From contig OY776510.1 of assembly GCA_963675665.1 (NCBI GenBank), positions 2,656,001-2,720,000 of the forward strand: a DNA stretch of 64,000 nt, in the 5' to 3' direction. Source of the stretch: Spirochaetia bacterium. Its GTDB lineage: Bacteria; Spirochaetota; Spirochaetia; UBA9216. The notes beneath the pieces are model-generated. The model was given only the letters and a program-made list of their open reading frames with translations, ran no database searches and was not told the origin of the DNA. The first letter of the stretch is position 1, and each line of letters starts with the position of its first letter. A program made the position numbers and the translations under genes. Positions 2 to 23,413 of the stretch are shown here, in pieces.

Positions 2-286
2 CTGCGCCCGGGCGATCTAATCAAGTGTTTCGGTGTCGGTTCTGCTGTAGTCGACAGGGTAAAAAATATAACCCTGCGCGAACCGGTATACAACCTGGCG
101 GTAGATGGACACCATAATTTTACAGTCGGAAGCTGCGGAGCTCTTGTTCATAATAAGGATGCCCAGGAAGAATCTCCCGTGATGTTTTATGCGAACCGTC
201 CCTTTATTTTTATTATAAGGGATAACCTGACCGGAGAGATTTATTTTATGGGAAGGCTGAGTAAGCCCGGTCAGGTGAGTAAGTAA
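2..286 (+). CDS. 3' end of a serpin-family protein with a Hint (intein-like/BIL) domain just before the serpin C-terminal strands (5'-partial, runs off the window)
   Basis: Manual translation of frame +2: LRPGDLIKCFGVGSAVVDRVKNITLREPVYNLAVDGHHNFTVGSCGALVHN-KDAQEESPVMFYANRPFIFIIRDNLTGEIYFMGRLSKPGQVSK*. LxPGD and VYNLxV...HNFxV...LVHN are Hint motifs. FYANRPFIFII fits the serpin signature and is followed by RDxxTGxIxFMGR. Confidence 0.85.
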   Translation: MRPGDLIKCFGVGSAVVDRVKNITLREPVYNLAVDGHHNFTVGSCGALVHNKDAQEESPVMFYANRPFIFIIRDNLTGEIYFMGRLSKPGQVSK

Positions 287-300
287 AAGCAGGAAGAATA

Positions 301-939
301 TTCGGCCACGGATATATCGGGCGGTACAGGCGGGTCACACGGACTGCGTTAATCCATATAGTCTGACTTAAACTATCAGCACCGAAGCCGTAGGCGTAGG
401 TATGAACACTGATTGAAGAAGTGATTGAGTTAAATCCTGTTTTAAAACAAGAAGAACTTTTCTAAATTGCTGTTAATCTTTTCTGTGTGAAATTTTGGAG
501 TTAGCTATTCGGGTGGAATATCCTGTCTGCCTTCATTATTTTTAATTTATAATCCATATTATTGCAACAATATTAACGTACCGGGTTATAATAATGATAG
601 AGATTCCTGCTATATATTTTCATTAATCATGGTTGTCTGCATATCATATATGAAGACGGGGCAGAGAAACTGATTGTCGGAACAGGTCAATACGGTTTTG
701 TTAAATTGTCCGGGGCCGCTGCAGCTTATCTGGAATCAAGGGGTTGTGCCTGCCTGCTTTATCCGACGCCGCGAGCTGTAAAAGAGTGGAATGCGGAGCA
801 GGGAAAAGTAATGGGGTTGTTTCATATCACCTGCTGAGCCAGCCCGGTTTAACGGGCGGGAAAAGTCTTACCCCCTTTGCTGATTATCCGTGTCAATCCG
901 TGTTGCCATTCATATGTGCCGCCTATATCCGTGGCCAAA
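301..939. repeat. Imperfect inverted repeats (about 301-346 and 894-939) built from CACGGAT-like units
   Basis: ggccacggatata (304-316) is the exact reverse complement of tatatccgtggcc (924-936). The match extends to ggcggtaca/tgtgccgcc and acacggactg/caatccgtgt. Confidence 0.6.
640..837 (+). pseudogene. 5'-truncated Mth938-like (DUF498 family) gene remnant
   Basis: Frame +1 reads HIIYEDGAEKLIVGTGQYGFVKLSGAAAAYLESRGCACLLYPTPRAVKEWNAEQGKVMGLFHITC*. IVGTG, PTxxA and the terminal FHxTC are typical of the family. There is an in-frame stop at 598-600 and no ATG between it and the conserved region. Confidence 0.7.
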
Positions 940-1009: not shown

Positions 1010-4000
1010 CTAAATCCTGATGCTGCCGCTTTTCCGTCCGGAGACTGCATATTTCATATATGGAATTATTACATCGTTCTTTAATGATTCGGTCCCGTCA
1101 TAGGTTATGGTAAGTACCGGAACACCGGTCAGCTCTTCAATGTCCCTGCTCATGGCTTCGGTGACGAGCGAAGGACAGCAGAATGCGGGGTTTGTCTGAA
1201 TAAAAAGTGAGACATCAGGGTGTTCTTTTATAATGCGGAAGATTTTAAGGATGTTTTCATTGCTTTCGCCTTCCTGCTCCACTCTGATATTAAAATTGGC
1301 AAGCTGGGTCTCAATATCTGGGTTCTTTGACTTTATCGGATCACCTATGTATTTGCTCAGATACCGGTAGTAGCGGCCCTCAAGCAGTTCCATGGCTGCA
1401 AGAAGGGATTTGCAGATGACAACATCGGAAATTTTCAACTCCCTGAACCATCTTTTAAAAACCGCACTGCTGATAATTTTAGCGTATTCGTTATACGGTG
1501 TCGTCAGAACCTCGCCGCCTGCATCTTCTATAATCTTAATCAGGTTCTGATTCATAACATCATTATCCCTGACATACAGATCTCCGAATAGCGCAACTTT
1601 CGGGCGGTCTGTTTTATTGTACTCTATCGCATCAAGCCCGGCTATAATTGATTTCACCGCTTCAGTAAAGTGCATTTCCCCGAGGAACGCTTTTTCCAGA
1701 ATTATTCTTGATTCCGCAATAACCCTGTCTGTTTCTCCCTTATGTACCTCATAGGGTCTTATCATGCAGCCGATTTTTTTCAGGTTGCCTCCGAACATAT
1801 AAGCAAAGTAGGTTTTGATTGATACAATGGGACTGATTTCCACCATGGTCAGCACGCCGGTATAAACACCTGCCGTCTGCAGTCCGTTACCTTCCTTTTC
1901 CATGAGGCTTTTAATGTAGGACGGATACATCGGTATGTTGCAGGCCCATGCTGATTTTATCATCCACAGGACGGTGTCCGCGGGGTTGAGCTTATATTTT
2001 TTTATGTATTGTGCATACTCGTGCGCTATTGTGTTTACAGGAATGCACTGGCCCGTGTTCATTCTCATACTTTCCGCTATCATCTTCGGAGTTTCTTCCA
2101 GCACCCTGGCATCTATTCCCGCGTAGCGCAGATTTGCCGCGACAAGGGGAAGAACAAAGGTGTCCCAGTTCGGCAAAAGAACTGTCTTTCCTTCAAGCGA
2201 TTTGGAGATTTGCGGCAGAACTGGAAGTTTGTTATCCTGCGCAGGAGTCCTTGCTGATTTAAAATGATTTCTGAAAGACCTGATCCCGGCTTCGATTCTT
2301 GTTTCGTATCCGATATTTGAATCGTGATCGTCGGTCTGAAGGATTAAATAAGGTTTTTCATGCCTGTCCATTATCCTCCTGAAATACTCCAGTGTAAACG
2401 AGTCGGGCGAACACTTGAATGATGTCACAAATACAGGGTAAAGCCCCTCGGTTTTCGCGCAATAATCTGCGGCGGCTAGGATCTCCGACGGATAAGCCCA
2501 GTGAAACTGGTCAAGCAGGCCGTCGACGGCTTCTGAAGGTTCGGCTGCCGGAATCATATCGGTAAAATACGTTTCAATACCGAGGGCGGCAAAGAAACCG
2601 GGAATATTCTTGTTCATCGATTCAAGCAGCACTGTATACGGCCTTCCTGTCAGAAGCACCTGTATATCGCCGTTTTCAGAAGAATGATAAACCTTTCTCA
2701 ATGCCTGTTTTGCTTTTTTGAAATTTTCAACTGCATCTTCAAATGCCGCGGATATTTCCGGAAAACTGAACTTCCGTTGAACATGCTCATTTACCGCTTT
2801 CATGAGTTCGAATTTTATTTTAAGCGGATTGGACCGGTAATTGATAAGAGGCATCAAACTCGTTATTTTACTGCCCCTCAGTTTCATTGATGAGGTAAGG
2901 GTTGAACTGAACTGGGTATAGTAGCAGAATTTCCGAAGCCGTGATGTATCTTTTTCATCCTTCCTGTCGCCGATGTGTATGGGCAGAAATACTACATCCG
3001 ATTTTTCGGCAACCGAGGCCGTATGACCGTAGAAAGCCGTCATCGGTGCACAGAATTCGGCGCCGGCAAGCTTTTTGCCCCGGGCTATTACGTCGGGGGT
3101 CTCTTCGCTTGTGACGGTCCTTATTCCGAGATTGTTAAAGAATTTCCGCCAGAGAAGCGTTTCGTCGAAAATCCTGAGTCCCGAGGGAATCCCGACAACA
3201 GGCAGTTCCGTCTTTTCGGGTTGCGCGGGCATCAGCGGGGCAAGTGCGGATTTTCGGATCTGCAGCAGTGAAGGCGTCTGCTGCTTTTTTACAAACTTTT
3301 TGGTGTTATAGTCCCTGCCGCACAGAAATCCGTAGGCAACCTCTTCATTTTTAACATCTGCAATTCTGATTCTGCAGTGGTTTCCGCACAGTCCGCATAT
3401 TTCGGTCCGGACTTCTATATTTTCCCGCCAGATATCGAAGCCCCTGAAGCCGGAAATGCCGCTCTTCTCTTCAGCGGCAGTGACCGCAGCTCCAAGGGCC
3501 CCGGTTAAATGGCAGTATTTTGAAACAAGCACGGGTTTGCCGAGTTTTTGCTCAAAGGCTGCAACAAGCGTCCGGTTCTTTGCGGTTGCTCCCTGAAAAT
3601 ATACCCGGTTTCCGATATTGCCTTCAGCGGCCACCTTCTGCAGATAGTTTTCCCTGACTGAAAACAGTACCGCTGCAAGAATCTCACCGACTTCATAACC
3701 TTTATTCAGGTAATGATTAATATCCCTTTCCATGAAAACAGTGCACCTGTCGCTGGTCAGGGGGGCCCTTGCTCCTTCTGCAAGATCTGCATATTCGGAA
3801 AGTGCCACGCCGAGTTTTGATGCCTGTTCTTCAATAAAGCTGCCGGTTCCGGCTGCGCATACCGTATTCATCTGTGAAAAGGTCACGACGCCCTTTCTCA
3901 GGGTTGTAAATTTAGAATCCTGCCCGCCTATCTCAATAATTGTATCGATATCAGGATCAAGCAATACTGCAGCACGCGCATGAGCTGAAATCTCATCCAG

Positions 4001-5212
4001 AACTGTATCGGCGCCGATCAGGTTGCCGATAAACTTCCGCCCGGACCCGGTGCTGCCCGCAGCAGAGACGGCAATGCTCAATTTCTCCCGTTCGATATAA
4101 GCGCTGCAGGCCTTGAATATAGCTTGAACGGCGGCGACAGGTCTGCCTGCAGTTCTGGTGTAAAAACCCGCTACAGGATTAAACGATGCGTCAATAATTA
4201 TAGCCTTTGTTGAAGTTGAACCTATATCAATTCCCATGGATACTTCAACGGGTATTTCCCCGGAAAGGTCCTGATAAATATCAACCTCTACATCGCTTTT
4301 ATCTGAAAAGTGAAAATTATAATGCTGAAGGCCGTTAAAATCGGGATAATCCGAGAGTTTCAATTCAAGCGGAGAATAAAAATATTCTTTCTCCGCGGCA
4401 TCCGCATCCTGTACCAGTTCAAAACGGTTTTCAGTTTCCTGCGGCAGGTTATCCTGAAGAAGCAGCCTGACCGCGCCGGCGGCCCCGGCAAGGTGGGAGT
4501 ACCTGTGAATCAGGATCTCGTGTCCCAGAATTTCTTCCAGATGCCCGACAACCGCCCTGTTGGCGGCTACGCCTCCGGTGAACACCATGGGGCTGTAATT
4601 CACTTTATCATCGAACAATGAGTCTGCAATATTATTGCCCAGGCCGGCGCAAAGCCCGTCGCAGATCTCTTCGATGGAATAGCCTTCCTGCTGAGAGTGG
4701 ATGATATCGGTCTTTGCGAAAACAGCGCATCTCGATGCTATTTTTGGAACAGCGCCGGTATTGAACAGGGCTTTCCTGCTCAGTTCGGCGCTGTCTGCAA
4801 GGTTTAGTCTTCCGGCCTGCTGATCCAGGAAACCGCCGGTGCCCGCGGCGCAGGAAGTGTTGGATTTCATATTTGTAAAACGGCTGCGGTCATCGAATTC
4901 GATCAATGAGAATCTTTCCCCTCCTACATTGAGGATTGATCTGATATTGCCGTAAAAAAAATTGACGCCCTGAATAATTGATACGATCGGATCAAAACTG
5001 ATCGCGCCGGTGATGATGTCGGGGGTAGAAGCCGTCCGGGCGATTCCGGTCGCATCCGAATAGTCAATTTCCAGAAGCATTTCCCTGATCGCCTTTGAGG
5101 GGTTGCCGTTATGATATCCGTAGCGGTGGTCCGTTACTATTCCTTCAGCAGTCATGACGATGAGAGATACGGTCACGGAGCCTGAATCTATGCCGATAAA
5201 TTTATCTTTCAT
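1010..5212 (-). CDS. Acyl-CoA dehydratase activase (two BadF/BadG/BcrA/BcrD ASKHA domains plus DUF2229-type C-terminal regions)
   Basis: GIDSGSVT...CAAGTGGFLDQQA...RCAVFAKTD and GIDIGSTSTK...IGGQDSK...CAAGTGSFIEEQA...RCTVF; C-terminal EFCAP, SFKCSPDS and GQCIP motifs; 1400 aa. Confidence 0.9.
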   Translation of the reverse strand: MKDKFIGIDSGSVTVSLIVMTAEGIVTDHRYGYHNGNPSKAIREMLLEIDYSDATGIARTASTPDIITGAISFDPIVSIIQGVNFFYGNIRSILNVGGERFSLIEFDDRSRFTNMKSNTSCAAGTGGFLDQQAGRLNLADSAELSRKALFNTGAVPKIASRCAVFAKTDIIHSQQEGYSIEEICDGLCAGLGNNIADSLFDDKVNYSPMVFTGGVAANRAVVGHLEEILGHEILIHRYSHLAGAAGAVRLLLQDNLPQETENRFELVQDADAAEKEYFYSPLELKLSDYPDFNGLQHYNFHFSDKSDVEVDIYQDLSGEIPVEVSMGIDIGSTSTKAIIIDASFNPVAGFYTRTAGRPVAAVQAIFKACSAYIEREKLSIAVSAAGSTGSGRKFIGNLIGADTVLDEISAHARAAVLLDPDIDTIIEIGGQDSKFTTLRKGVVTFSQMNTVCAAGTGSFIEEQASKLGVALSEYADLAEGARAPLTSDRCTVFMERDINHYLNKGYEVGEILAAVLFSVRENYLQKVAAEGNIGNRVYFQGATAKNRTLVAAFEQKLGKPVLVSKYCHLTGALGAAVTAAEEKSGISGFRGFDIWRENIEVRTEICGLCGNHCRIRIADVKNEEVAYGFLCGRDYNTKKFVKKQQTPSLLQIRKSALAPLMPAQPEKTELPVVGIPSGLRIFDETLLWRKFFNNLGIRTVTSEETPDVIARGKKLAGAEFCAPMTAFYGHTASVAEKSDVVFLPIHIGDRKDEKDTSRLRKFCYYTQFSSTLTSSMKLRGSKITSLMPLINYRSNPLKIKFELMKAVNEHVQRKFSFPEISAAFEDAVENFKKAKQALRKVYHSSENGDIQVLLTGRPYTVLLESMNKNIPGFFAALGIETYFTDMIPAAEPSEAVDGLLDQFHWAYPSEILAAADYCAKTEGLYPVFVTSFKCSPDSFTLEYFRRIMDRHEKPYLILQTDDHDSNIGYETRIEAGIRSFRNHFKSARTPAQDNKLPVLPQISKSLEGKTVLLPNWDTFVLPLVAANLRYAGIDARVLEETPKMIAESMRMNTGQCIPVNTIAHEYAQYIKKYKLNPADTVLWMIKSAWACNIPMYPSYIKSLMEKEGNGLQTAGVYTGVLTMVEISPIVSIKTYFAYMFGGNLKKIGCMIRPYEVHKGETDRVIAESRIILEKAFLGEMHFTEAVKSIIAGLDAIEYNKTDRPKVALFGDLYVRDNDVMNQNLIKIIEDAGGEVLTTPYNEYAKIISSAVFKRWFRELKISDVVICKSLLAAMELLEGRYYRYLSKYIGDPIKSKNPDIETQLANFNIRVEQEGESNENILKIFRIIKEHPDVSLFIQTNPAFCCPSLVTEAMSRDIEELTGVPVLTITYDGTESLKNDVIIPYMKYAVSGRKSGSIRI

Positions 5213-21895: not shown

Positions 21896-23413
21896 ATGAG
21901 AGATGTAGCGCTTTCTGTGAGAGATGTTTATAAATCATTTAGCAATGTTGAAGTTTTGAAGGGGACTAAAATAGATGTGAAAGCCGGGACTGTTCATGCG
22001 CTTGTCGGAGAGAACGGGGCCGGAAAGAGTACCCTGATCAAGATTGTCACCGGAGTTTACACAAAAGACAGCGGCGATGTTTATATTAATAATGAAGAAG
22101 GCTATTTTGATTTAATGAGGGATAAAATTGCCTATGTCCCGCAGGAACTGACGCTTTTCCCGCAATTGACTGTAGCCGAAAATATTTATGTTGACGAAGA
22201 ACCCTTGACAAAGACGAAAAGATTTATAGATTTCTCTAAAATGAATAATATGGCAAGGAAGATCCTGCATGAGCTCAATGTTGAAACAGCTCCCGACACG
22301 GTTCTTTCGGATTTGAGCGTTGCAAATCAGCAGATGGTACAGATAGCACGCGCCATAGCCAAGAAATTCGATGTACTGATTCTTGATGAGCCGACAGCTT
22401 CCATAACTGTGGTTGAAACACAGAAACTTTTTGAAATAGTAAAACAACTGCGCAGGCAGGGTAAAGCCATAGTCCTTATCACCCATAAACTGGATGAGGT
22501 CCAGGAGATATGTGATGATATAACAATCCTCAGGGACGGTATTTCTCTTGGAACCTGGGCTGTTAAGGATATTTCGAGAGACGAAATAGTAAGGCAGATG
22601 GCGGGCGGCAAATTAATAAAATACAAGTCGCCAAACCGGGAAGCAGATCCTGATAACGTAATAATGGAAGTCAAATCGATTTCAGGATACGGTTTTTATA
22701 ATGTTAGTTTTAAATTAAGAAAAGGCGAGATCCTCGGAATGGCCGGACTGGTCGGTTCAGGTCGAACTGAAACCGCTGAAGCGATTTACGGAGGGACAAA
22801 AATACTCAAGGGTGAAGTTTTATTAAACGGTATCGGTCTGAAAAATAAAACGCCGACCCAGGGTGTTAATAACGGAATTATTTATTTTACCGAAGAAAGA
22901 AAAACAAAGGGGATTTTCCCCAATTTAAGCGTTAATGAAAATATTATGATCCCAATAATAAAGAATTATAAAAATGGAATATTTATATCTGAAGAAAAGC
23001 TGGAAAGCAAATCTGCAGAGCTTGCTTCTGAGTATAATGTCAAAGCTGCGTCTTTAAAGGATGAAATGTGTCATTTAAGCGGAGGCAATCAGCAGAAAGC
23101 TTTGTTGGCAAGGGCTGTAGCAATGAAACCGAAAGTTATAATCCTTGATGAACCTACAAGGGGAATAGATGTTAACGCACGTGCGGAAATATATGATAAA
23201 ATCGATGAACTCATTAAAATGGGGATTGGAATTATTGTAATTTCATCGGAAATGGAAGAATTACAGAAGATTACGGACAGAATTCTTGTTTTTCATGGCG
23301 GTACCGTCAGCGCTGAAGTTAAAACGACAGAGGCAAATAATGAAAATCTGTTACGTTACGCCATGGGTTTTAACGATGAACAGGATATTCATAGTATACA
23401 AAATTTAAACTAA
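21896..23413 (+). CDS. Sugar ABC transporter ATP-binding protein (RbsA-like)
   Basis: GENGAGKST, DEPT, LSGGNQQK and DEPTRGID all intact. Confidence 0.92.
   Translation: MRDVALSVRDVYKSFSNVEVLKGTKIDVKAGTVHALVGENGAGKSTLIKIVTGVYTKDSGDVYINNEEGYFDLMRDKIAYVPQELTLFPQLTVAENIYVDEEPLTKTKRFIDFSKMNNMARKILHELNVETAPDTVLSDLSVANQQMVQIARAIAKKFDVLILDEPTASITVVETQKLFEIVKQLRRQGKAIVLITHKLDEVQEICDDITILRDGISLGTWAVKDISRDEIVRQMAGGKLIKYKSPNREADPDNVIMEVKSISGYGFYNVSFKLRKGEILGMAGLVGSGRTETAEAIYGGTKILKGEVLLNGIGLKNKTPTQGVNNGIIYFTEERKTKGIFPNLSVNENIMIPIIKNYKNGIFISEEKLESKSAELASEYNVKAASLKDEMCHLSGGNQQKALLARAVAMKPKVIILDEPTRGIDVNARAEIYDKIDELIKMGIGIIVISSEMEELQKITDRILVFHGGTVSAEVKTTEANNENLLRYAMGFNDEQDIHSIQNLN

Follow-up and report, generated by a model that had tools for sequence, protein, structure and literature searches.

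A serpin gene at the start of the window carries a complete Hint domain inserted into its reactive-centre loop, and the same architecture recurs in other bacterial proteins. The window is the whole stretch of DNA analysed here, 64,000 nucleotides (G000:C1:2656001-2720000) lying on a single 5.15-Mb contig. Serpins are metastable proteins that depend on one intact loop, and Hint domains catalyse the rearrangement of peptide bonds in their own chain; the inserted domain, judged by its sequence, is a type A bacterial intein-like (BIL) domain. The fusion is tentatively read below as a pro-serpin that would be matured by excision of the Hint and re-ligation of the loop.

A Hint domain at the reactive-centre loop position

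The serpin gene begins 1.4 kb upstream of the window, and an open frame (2-286, + strand) enters from before the window start. It reads, in order, LRPGD..., VYNLAVDGHHNFTV and GALVHN (the Hint C-terminal stretch LRPGD...VYNLAVDGHHNFTVGSCGALVHN, whose last nucleotide is 154), followed by KDAQEESPVM and FYANRPFIFIIRDNLTGEIYFMGRLSKP. An earlier note on this DNA had claimed that the C-terminal half of a Hint is joined here to a serpin C-terminus in one frame. The frame reads exactly as claimed and Pfam agrees, since residues 52-89 of the 94-residue fragment encoded in the window match positions 333-370 of the 370-position Serpin profile (36.2 bits, cut-off 27) and residues 16-51 give weak matches to Intein_splicing and PT-HINT. 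The serpin body that the note had expected upstream is also present, as the frame is uninterrupted for 574 codons (L001:62-1786). The ATG at L001:125 is the likely start of the gene, and a promoter-like site (L001:74-101, score 11/12 with a TG extension) lies directly before it. Translation from this ATG gives a product of 553 residues that is identical to the database protein P0002, and its N-terminus, MKKTCRLLILVLVLLLCSSILFA/EE (slashes mark boundaries here and below), looks like a signal peptide when read by eye.

Features of the serpin-Hint gene (positions in the window, or in L001 where so prefixed)
Feature	Position	Strand	Basis
Serpin body	L001:125-1183	+	upstream frame
Hinge codons	about L001:1142-1183	+	upstream frame
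Hint start (Cys1)	L001:1184 = window position -316	+	upstream sequence
Last 51 residues of the Hint (of 157 aa), blocks F and G, ending in His-Asn	2..154	+	Pfam; alignment to 2lwy residues 80-138
Hint C-flank, primed side of the reactive-centre loop, Lys(+1)-Asp-Ala-Gln-Glu-Glu-Ser-Pro-Val-Met, 10 residues	155..184	+	
Serpin C-terminal segment FYANRPFIFIIRDNLTGEIYFMGRLSKPGQVSK	185..283	+	Pfam Serpin profile positions 333-370
Serpin gene stop codon	284..286	+	translation

The full protein scores 321.6 bits against the Serpin profile (PF00079; cut-off 27) in two stretches, residues 53-371 corresponding to profile positions 4-329 and the tail to positions 333-370, with the break at 329/333 marked by Hint matches. 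The junctions read hinge EEGSEAAAATVAGG / CFPAGT...LVHN / KDAQEESPVM-FYANRPF, which places the 157-residue Hint at about P4/P3 and bears out its proposed position in the reactive-centre loop, between the hinge and FYANRPF. The earlier note had predicted that a Hint beginning with Cys (CFxxGT) would follow a hinge of the EEGTEAAA type, and had named a missing N-terminal Cys as evidence against the idea; the upstream sequence reads NEEGSEAAAATVAGG/CFPAGT, with Cys1 right after the hinge. Hinges of the inhibitory type have Glu at P17, Gly at P15, Ser or Thr at P14 and small residues at P12-P9, and the hinge of P0002, EEGSEAAAAT, has each of these. With the conserved hinge Glu taken as P17, which we assume as the numbering convention, Cys1 is preceded by P4, and rejoining of the ends would make the Lys that follows His-Asn P3; the earlier suggestion that this Lys lies near P1 is not upheld.

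The distance from the hinge to the FxxxxPF segment is 181 residues in the precursor, compared with 19-30 in 125 plain serpin loops, and the loop of P0002 without the Hint has 24 residues. The precursor has no continuous reactive-centre loop of about 20-30 residues, and we infer that the presence of a 17-kDa domain three residues ahead of the scissile position makes it unable to work as a normal serpin.

The top sequence match of the Hint in the PDB is 2lwy_A, a 'bacterial intein-like domain' (E 9.4e-13), which aligns with both halves of the domain in two stretches (Hint residues 2-74 and 101-157). On the full protein, Pfam PT-HINT (PF07591) passes its cut-off marginally (28.8 bits, cut-off 27.7), Intein_splicing stays below (28, cut-off 35.8), as do Pfam Hint (PF01079; 19.9, cut-off 29.7) and the intein N-terminal profile TIGR01445 (20.9, cut-off 24.5), and the C-terminal profile TIGR01443 lies above (19.9, cut-off 15.6). 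The Hint of P0002 carries Cys1 (C354), the block-B motif TSNH and a terminal His-Asn, with Lys next (LVHN/K). In passages of PMC4031507 and PMC7765530, type A BILs are defined by Cys1, block B, a terminal His-Asn and the absence of a +1 nucleophile. The domain is assigned to this type because it combines Cys1 and a terminal His-Asn with the absence of both a +1 nucleophile (Lys occupies this position) and an endonuclease, and the BIL-A assignment made earlier agrees with these features, with the size of the domain and with the 2lwy match. The location is also that of type A BILs, namely a variable region of a secreted-type protein, and the complete Hint leaves no room for a homing endonuclease, as had been noted before. 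Canonical class 1 inteins have Cys, Ser or Thr at +1, and this position is Lys in P0002. No other Hint of this type was found in the G000 genome, in which the serpin copy is the sole one.

A chimeric junction, which the earlier note had named as a way for the fusion to be undone, is excluded. The fusion is not a misassembly, because both junctions are also spanned by contigs of another study. These come from a marine metagenome (X4), where two contigs (1126-1444 and 1426-1872) carry 10 substitutions each, with no indels and no joints. In run X3 the N-junction is bridged by a contig covering L001:886-1269 and the C-junction by a separate contig covering L001:1508-1854, and a contig of run X1, which may be the source sample, covers L001:62-1866 with zero differences. 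Within the Hint, the X4 strain variant has seven synonymous and three non-synonymous codon changes, which is weak evidence of purifying selection since depth is low.

In an AF2 model of the fusion the Hint forms a separate domain (pLDDT 70-89 in the Hint blocks), and pLDDT is low only at the junctions, residues 352-357 and 511-518, falling below 50 in the latter. The N-side of the loop is modelled as a strand (342-352, pLDDT about 94), the top fold matches are latent or cleaved serpins, and structures of miropin and tengpin are among the matches. This loop-inserted body was rejected as evidence of self-insertion and is uninformative, because a control serpin that has no Hint, modelled from an alignment just as shallow (13 sequences), likewise has its loop as a strand (332-345) and matches latent or cleaved serpins, with a poor global rmsd of about 20 A.

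The upstream neighbours, an S1-domain protein and a nitroreductase, are unrelated to the serpin, and no protease or other obvious partner gene was found among the neighbours adjoining it. No RNA data sets listing the serpin-Hint gene were found. Downstream of the gene and convergent with it lies a frame for a fusion protein of the CoA-enzyme activase type (1,400 residues; window 1010-5212, - strand), in which two stretches match BcrAD_BadFG ATPase and others match DUF2229 and, weakly, HGD-D. Just downstream of the serpin stop there is a dispersed repeat of about 100 bp (window 304-413; G000:C1:2656304-2656413) with three further copies, at G000:C1:2630098-2630198 (+, 90%), 2645784-2645891 (-, 88%) and 23257-23318 (-, 85%). 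The X1 and X3 contigs break or branch at this repeat (loose ends at L001:1827), and a comparison of the repeat with Rfam gave no match.

Recurrence of the fusion and of its Hint module

The earlier note had called for a search for serpin-Hint-serpin architectures, and public protein sets hold at least 54 cluster representatives in two groups, 35 in clade A and 19 in clade B. A phmmer search run exhaustively over 1.84 billion representatives gave 42,970 matches, mostly plain serpins. Among the best 150 of these together with the query, 28 of the 151 proteins carry this Hint: the window's own protein (counted twice), nine full-length and four partial clade-A proteins, 12 clade-B proteins, and one non-serpin with three tandem Hints. 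When the hinge-Hint-tail segment served as the query of a word-indexed search, 72 proteins reached E <= 1e-5, and 35 of them have both PF00079 and PF07591. The two clades were set by regular expression over 219 proteins, which missed at least one member (P0159). Complete fusions are present in 2 of 41 relatives (G023 and G000) and in 2 of 401 sampled genomes of the phylum (G119 and G000). A profile search of genome contigs showed no recognisable fusion among the matches listed (at least 78 loci, with plain serpins dominant), which is uninformative on distribution.

In clade A the Hint has 156-162 residues, reads CFPAGT...LVHN and is placed at P5-P3. Counted from P17, the N-flank has 13-15 residues; the C-flank has 8-14, and exactly 10 in 24 of the 35 proteins. 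The residue at -1 is Gly (30/35) or Phe (5/35), and that at +1 is Lys in 28, Gly in four, and Asn, Met or Glu in one each, with Cys, Ser or Thr in none of the 35; Gly or Ala follows at +2 in 28. Clade-B Hints are 136-138 residues long, end in W[VT]HN and are placed at P2-P1 of longer proteins with C-terminal extensions. Their N-flank has 16 residues in 11 of 19 members, 17 in seven and 19 in one, and the lengths of 16-17 therefore bring the Hint N-terminal scissile bond on or beside the canonical P1-P1' bond. The +1 residue of clade B is variable (Ser or Thr in 5/19) and +2 is Cys in 10 and Tyr in seven, a sign that the splice nucleophile may be shifted or unusual. The clade-B proteins (P0023-P0206, including P0198) are planctomycete-type serpins of 627-1,425 residues, and P0193 also has a dockerin domain (PF00404).

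When the Hint is left out, the sum of the N- and C-flanks is 21-27 residues in clade A (median 24, n=35) and 20-29 in clade B (median 23, n=19), compared with 19-30 in plain serpin loops (median 25, n=125). The flank sum is thus normal, although about five of the residues counted come from the GG...KGG of the module itself. In an alignment of 13 clade-A sequences (30-39% identity), the invariant parts of the Hint are Cys1 and Phe2, the Thr of block B, GRWV, GD, the Val of block F, and Leu-x-His-Asn (L507, H509, N510). In the serpin part of the same sequences the hinge residues E340, G342 and A347 are invariant and T349 is nearly so, and P526 and F527 (PF) and F541, M542 and G543 (FMG) of the tail are also invariant. 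The block-B His is replaced by Gln in 3 of the 13.

The tree rows were picked by their score to a Hint-bearing query and are biased, with groups defined by the feature itself, and the trees are to be read with this sampling. The clade-B bodies form one well-supported clade (100), and the clade-B Hints do likewise (100); beyond clade B, the Hint tree resolves only the three Hints of P0033. Clade-A bodies are scattered in a FastTree of 151 serpin bodies. AU tests over 61 rows reject neither a single clade A (p-AU 0.776, the constrained tree being 27.8 lnL better) nor a single clade uniting A and B (p-AU 0.523). A claim of two independent insertions was therefore dropped, and one or two insertion events are possible.

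The same type of Hint, with flanks of the form GGG/C...HN/KGG, is found in DUF2330-ankyrin, VWA, LVIVD, DUF4349, Tim44/Vint and RHS proteins, and the nearest Hint to that of P0002 by identity (43%) lies in a non-serpin of the same genus (G001). The flanking Gly and Lys belong to the chemistry or history of the module and are no protease bait, because the same flanks recur in these non-serpin hosts. G001 encodes, at L009:1186-3480 (+), a secreted ankyrin-repeat protein of 764 residues with the flanks HRGG/CFPAGT...ILVHN/KGGLE, and in its relatives P0176-P0188 the same Hint is paired with DUF2330 (PF10092). Two or three tandem Hints, each in the context GGG/C...HN/KGG, are present in the non-serpins P0033 (793 aa), P0196, P0199, P0202, P0204 and P0207, and some of the tandem-Hint non-serpins also have Tim44 and Vint domains.

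Decayed forms have been found as well. A remnant in G109 (L097; G109:C22:12754-13275, +) retains the C-terminal two-thirds of the Hint and the serpin tail, reading ILVHN/GKEKGFPPKPIIFRADHPF, with in-frame TAG stops and no in-frame serpin body upstream. P0075, a metagenomic protein of 463 residues, has a serpin loop with a Hint of about 77 residues in which CFPAGT and ...ILVHN/KGGA are kept and block B is missing; it is presumably an internal-deletion derivative incapable of self-processing.

Possible fates of the interrupted loop

According to passages in PMC7664689, PMC7765530 and PMC4031507, type A BILs form an N-terminal thioester and are cut at their C-terminus by Asn cyclisation. Review passages further describe an aminolysis route, in which the freed amino group attacks the thioester and the flanks become ligated. 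The products of BILs are predominantly cleaved in the account of PMC7664689, and a passage of PMC7765530 states that A-type BILs 'cannot ligate the flanking sequences'.

The reading favoured here, with some reserve, is a secreted pro-serpin matured by Hint excision and re-ligation. It would be exported with its bait loop interrupted at about P4/P3 by a Hint sitting on flexible, Gly-rich junctions, and after export the Hint would turn the Gly-Cys1 peptide bond into a thioester. Cyclisation of the terminal Asn would sever the Hint-Lys bond, and the freed amino group of the Lys would attack the thioester by the published aminolysis route of type A BILs. The products would be a 17.1-kDa Hint and a serpin of 373 residues (42.1 kDa) with a 24-residue loop of normal length, which would act as an ordinary suicide inhibitor. 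As long as the 17-kDa loop domain is in place, it would hold the inhibitor inactive, delaying inhibition past secretion and folding, and a loop-cleaved relaxed serpin would arise as a by-product, possibly in large amount. Maturation by splicing is favoured because the joined loop is of normal length despite its roughly five module-derived positions, because the flanks are small, unhindered residues (Gly at -1, Lys at +1, Gly or Ala at +2), which would favour aminolysis, and because the serpin body and the Hint have persisted together. As the clade-A bodies fit one clade, this persistence suggests that the fusion yields a working product. The agreement in loop length could be inherited from the ancestral loop, however, and ligation would leave the Lys at about P3 of the joined loop, with Gly at P1 in many members. 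Flanks of the form GGG/C...HN/KGG are typical of the module, occurring also in non-serpin hosts, and are not those of a protease bait, and there is no target protease gene nearby. The block-B Gln of three members may disable the N-terminal step in those proteins. Ligation is moreover at odds with the dominance of cleavage in the BIL chemistry described in passages of PMC7664689 and with its denial in a passage of the review PMC7765530. Finally, aminolysis involves a broken-chain state, and entry of the loop into sheet A at that stage could part the thioester from the amine before ligation.

That the spring can fire in the broken-chain state is equally the kinetic argument for an alternative in which the Hint would only cut, by C-terminal Asn cyclisation or by hydrolysis of the N-terminal thioester, and would thereby release the serpin spring without a protease. 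We regard this, the main rival reading, as a real, minority possibility. The N-side of the loop would enter sheet A to give a hyperstable, two-chain relaxed serpin, and if the C-terminal cut came first, the still-attached Hint would be dragged to the far pole. The Hint would then serve as a trigger or timer that needs no protease, and selection would act on the conformational change or on the relaxed product rather than on inhibition. Such a role is consistent with the published prevalence of cleavage products in the passages cited above, with the lack of a +1 nucleophile throughout clade A, and with the N-flanks of 16 or 17 residues in clade B that bring the scissile bond to P1-P1' or beside it. 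The hinge is still of the inhibitory type that loop insertion requires, the flanks are module-typical and not bait-like, and the loss of the block-B His in three sequences in which His-Asn is kept fits a conserved C-terminal cut. Cys1, on the other hand, is invariant even where that His is lost, and the conserved, normal flank-length sum is left unexplained if the ends never rejoin. Moreover, a bacterial serpin that inactivates itself has no known function, and the loop-inserted AF2 model gives no support, the Hint-less control being the same.

A third account treats the Hint as a tolerated passenger, a semi-selfish BIL module spreading among the exposed, Gly-rich loops of secreted proteins, which would sit in the serpin loop only because this is the one long and flexible loop that tolerates insertions. 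Processing would not be regulatory, and decay of the module may be under way in some lineages. The recurrence of the same Hint and flanks in the DUF2330-ankyrin, VWA, LVIVD, DUF4349, Tim44/Vint and RHS proteins fits this account, as do the placement of the nearest Hint in a non-serpin of the same genus, the decayed G109 remnant and P0075, and the patchy distribution of complete fusions among the phylum genomes and the relatives. It is nevertheless unlikely, given that the catalytic residues are invariant at 30-39% identity and the serpin bodies are intact, that the module has no endonuclease or other mobility function, and that the G000 genome holds a single Hint of this type. A passenger would also require excision, and on the chemistry it overlaps with the pro-serpin reading.

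Within the splicing chemistry, the Lys at +1 could itself be the splice nucleophile, its side-chain amine attacking the Gly-Cys1 thioester before the Asn cut. Lys occupies +1 in most non-serpin hosts of the Hint subfamily as well as in 28 of the 35 clade-A serpins; such a role is nonetheless very improbable. Were it true, the chain would never be broken and the serpin spring would be safe from premature firing. The mature loop would contain an isopeptide link and a free alpha-amino group, and the reaction would represent a new class of protein splicing that makes a branched reactive-centre loop.

Comparison with known systems

No published description of a natural serpin-Hint fusion was found among the papers listed in full-text searches of a mainly open-access literature. 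This agrees with the impression in the earlier note that the architecture was undescribed. In PMC4582956, the one paper in which both 'bacterial intein-like' and 'serpin' occur, the passages apply the two terms to different proteins. The fusions themselves are present in public protein sets, where the sole source names are 'hypothetical protein [Spirochaetales bacterium]', 'serpin family protein [Lacipirellula limnantheis]', 'serpin B' and 'serine protease inhibitor'. For a folded, putative autoprocessing domain within a serpin reactive-centre loop, no earlier description was found.

The significance of the fusion lies in the occurrence of a Hint inside the serpin loop repeatedly and under conservation. 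If the pro-serpin reading is true, it would provide a zymogen-like inhibitor that matures through a protein splicing reaction with no nucleophilic side chain, and if the Hint only cuts, a serpin that fires its own spring protease-free; either would be new for serpin biology. Furthermore, a serpin host separates the outcomes of BIL chemistry measurably, as splicing would yield an active inhibitor and cleavage a hyperstable relaxed form, and the long-open question of the purpose of BIL domains becomes directly testable. The fusion may also offer a natural template for engineered self-activating protease inhibitors.

Like canonical mini-inteins and conditional splicing systems, the Hint of P0002 occupies a functionally critical site of its host, which would be inactive until excision, in the manner of a post-translational switch. 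Unlike canonical mini-inteins, it has neither a +1 nucleophile nor a homing endonuclease, its Intein_splicing score is below the cut-off, its host is a secreted accessory protein and not a replication or repair protein, and the module occurs in many unrelated hosts. The PT-HINT domains of polymorphic toxins are similar in that PF07591 is marginally passed and that relatives of the Hint are found in RHS and 'polymorphic toxin-type HINT' proteins. In contrast to these toxins, P0002 has no downstream toxin domain, only a serpin tail of 43 residues; as this tail is integral to the serpin fold, release of a C-terminal cargo cannot be the purpose of the Hint. The Hedgehog Hog domain differs in another respect, since the Hint of P0002 ends in His-Asn and leads straight into the serpin tail without a sterol-recognition region. 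The DUF2330/ankyrin hosts (that of G001, and P0176-P0188) share the Hint subfamily, the GG/C...HN/KGG flanks and the secreted character with P0002, and the G001 host shares its genus as well, but the fold of the ankyrin host is different and no spring-loaded change is coupled to the cut.

With bacterial inhibitory serpins such as miropin, tengpin and the siropins, P0002 shares a full serpin fold, a signal-peptide-like N-terminus, an inhibitory-type hinge with small P12-P9 residues and the C-terminal FxxxRPF segment. Known serpins have a continuous loop of about 25 residues, whereas the loop of P0002 contains a folded, putative autoprocessing domain.

The closest parallel among BILs is 2lwy, which is reportedly BIL4 of Clostridium thermocellum; Amitai (2003), Dassa (2004) and Aranko (2013) are cited for type A BILs in reviews and may list BIL hosts. 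As in type A BILs such as BIL4, the Hint of P0002 has Cys1, a block-B TxxH motif, a terminal His-Asn and a mini size, lacks Cys, Ser or Thr at +1, and is inserted without an endonuclease into a variable region of a secreted host. It is about 20 residues longer than 2lwy (157 compared with 138), and its subfamily has strongly conserved flanks, Gly at -1 and Lys-Gly at +1 and +2. Unlike the 2lwy-type BILs, it interrupts the bait loop of a spring-loaded serpin, where a cut would have a large conformational consequence.
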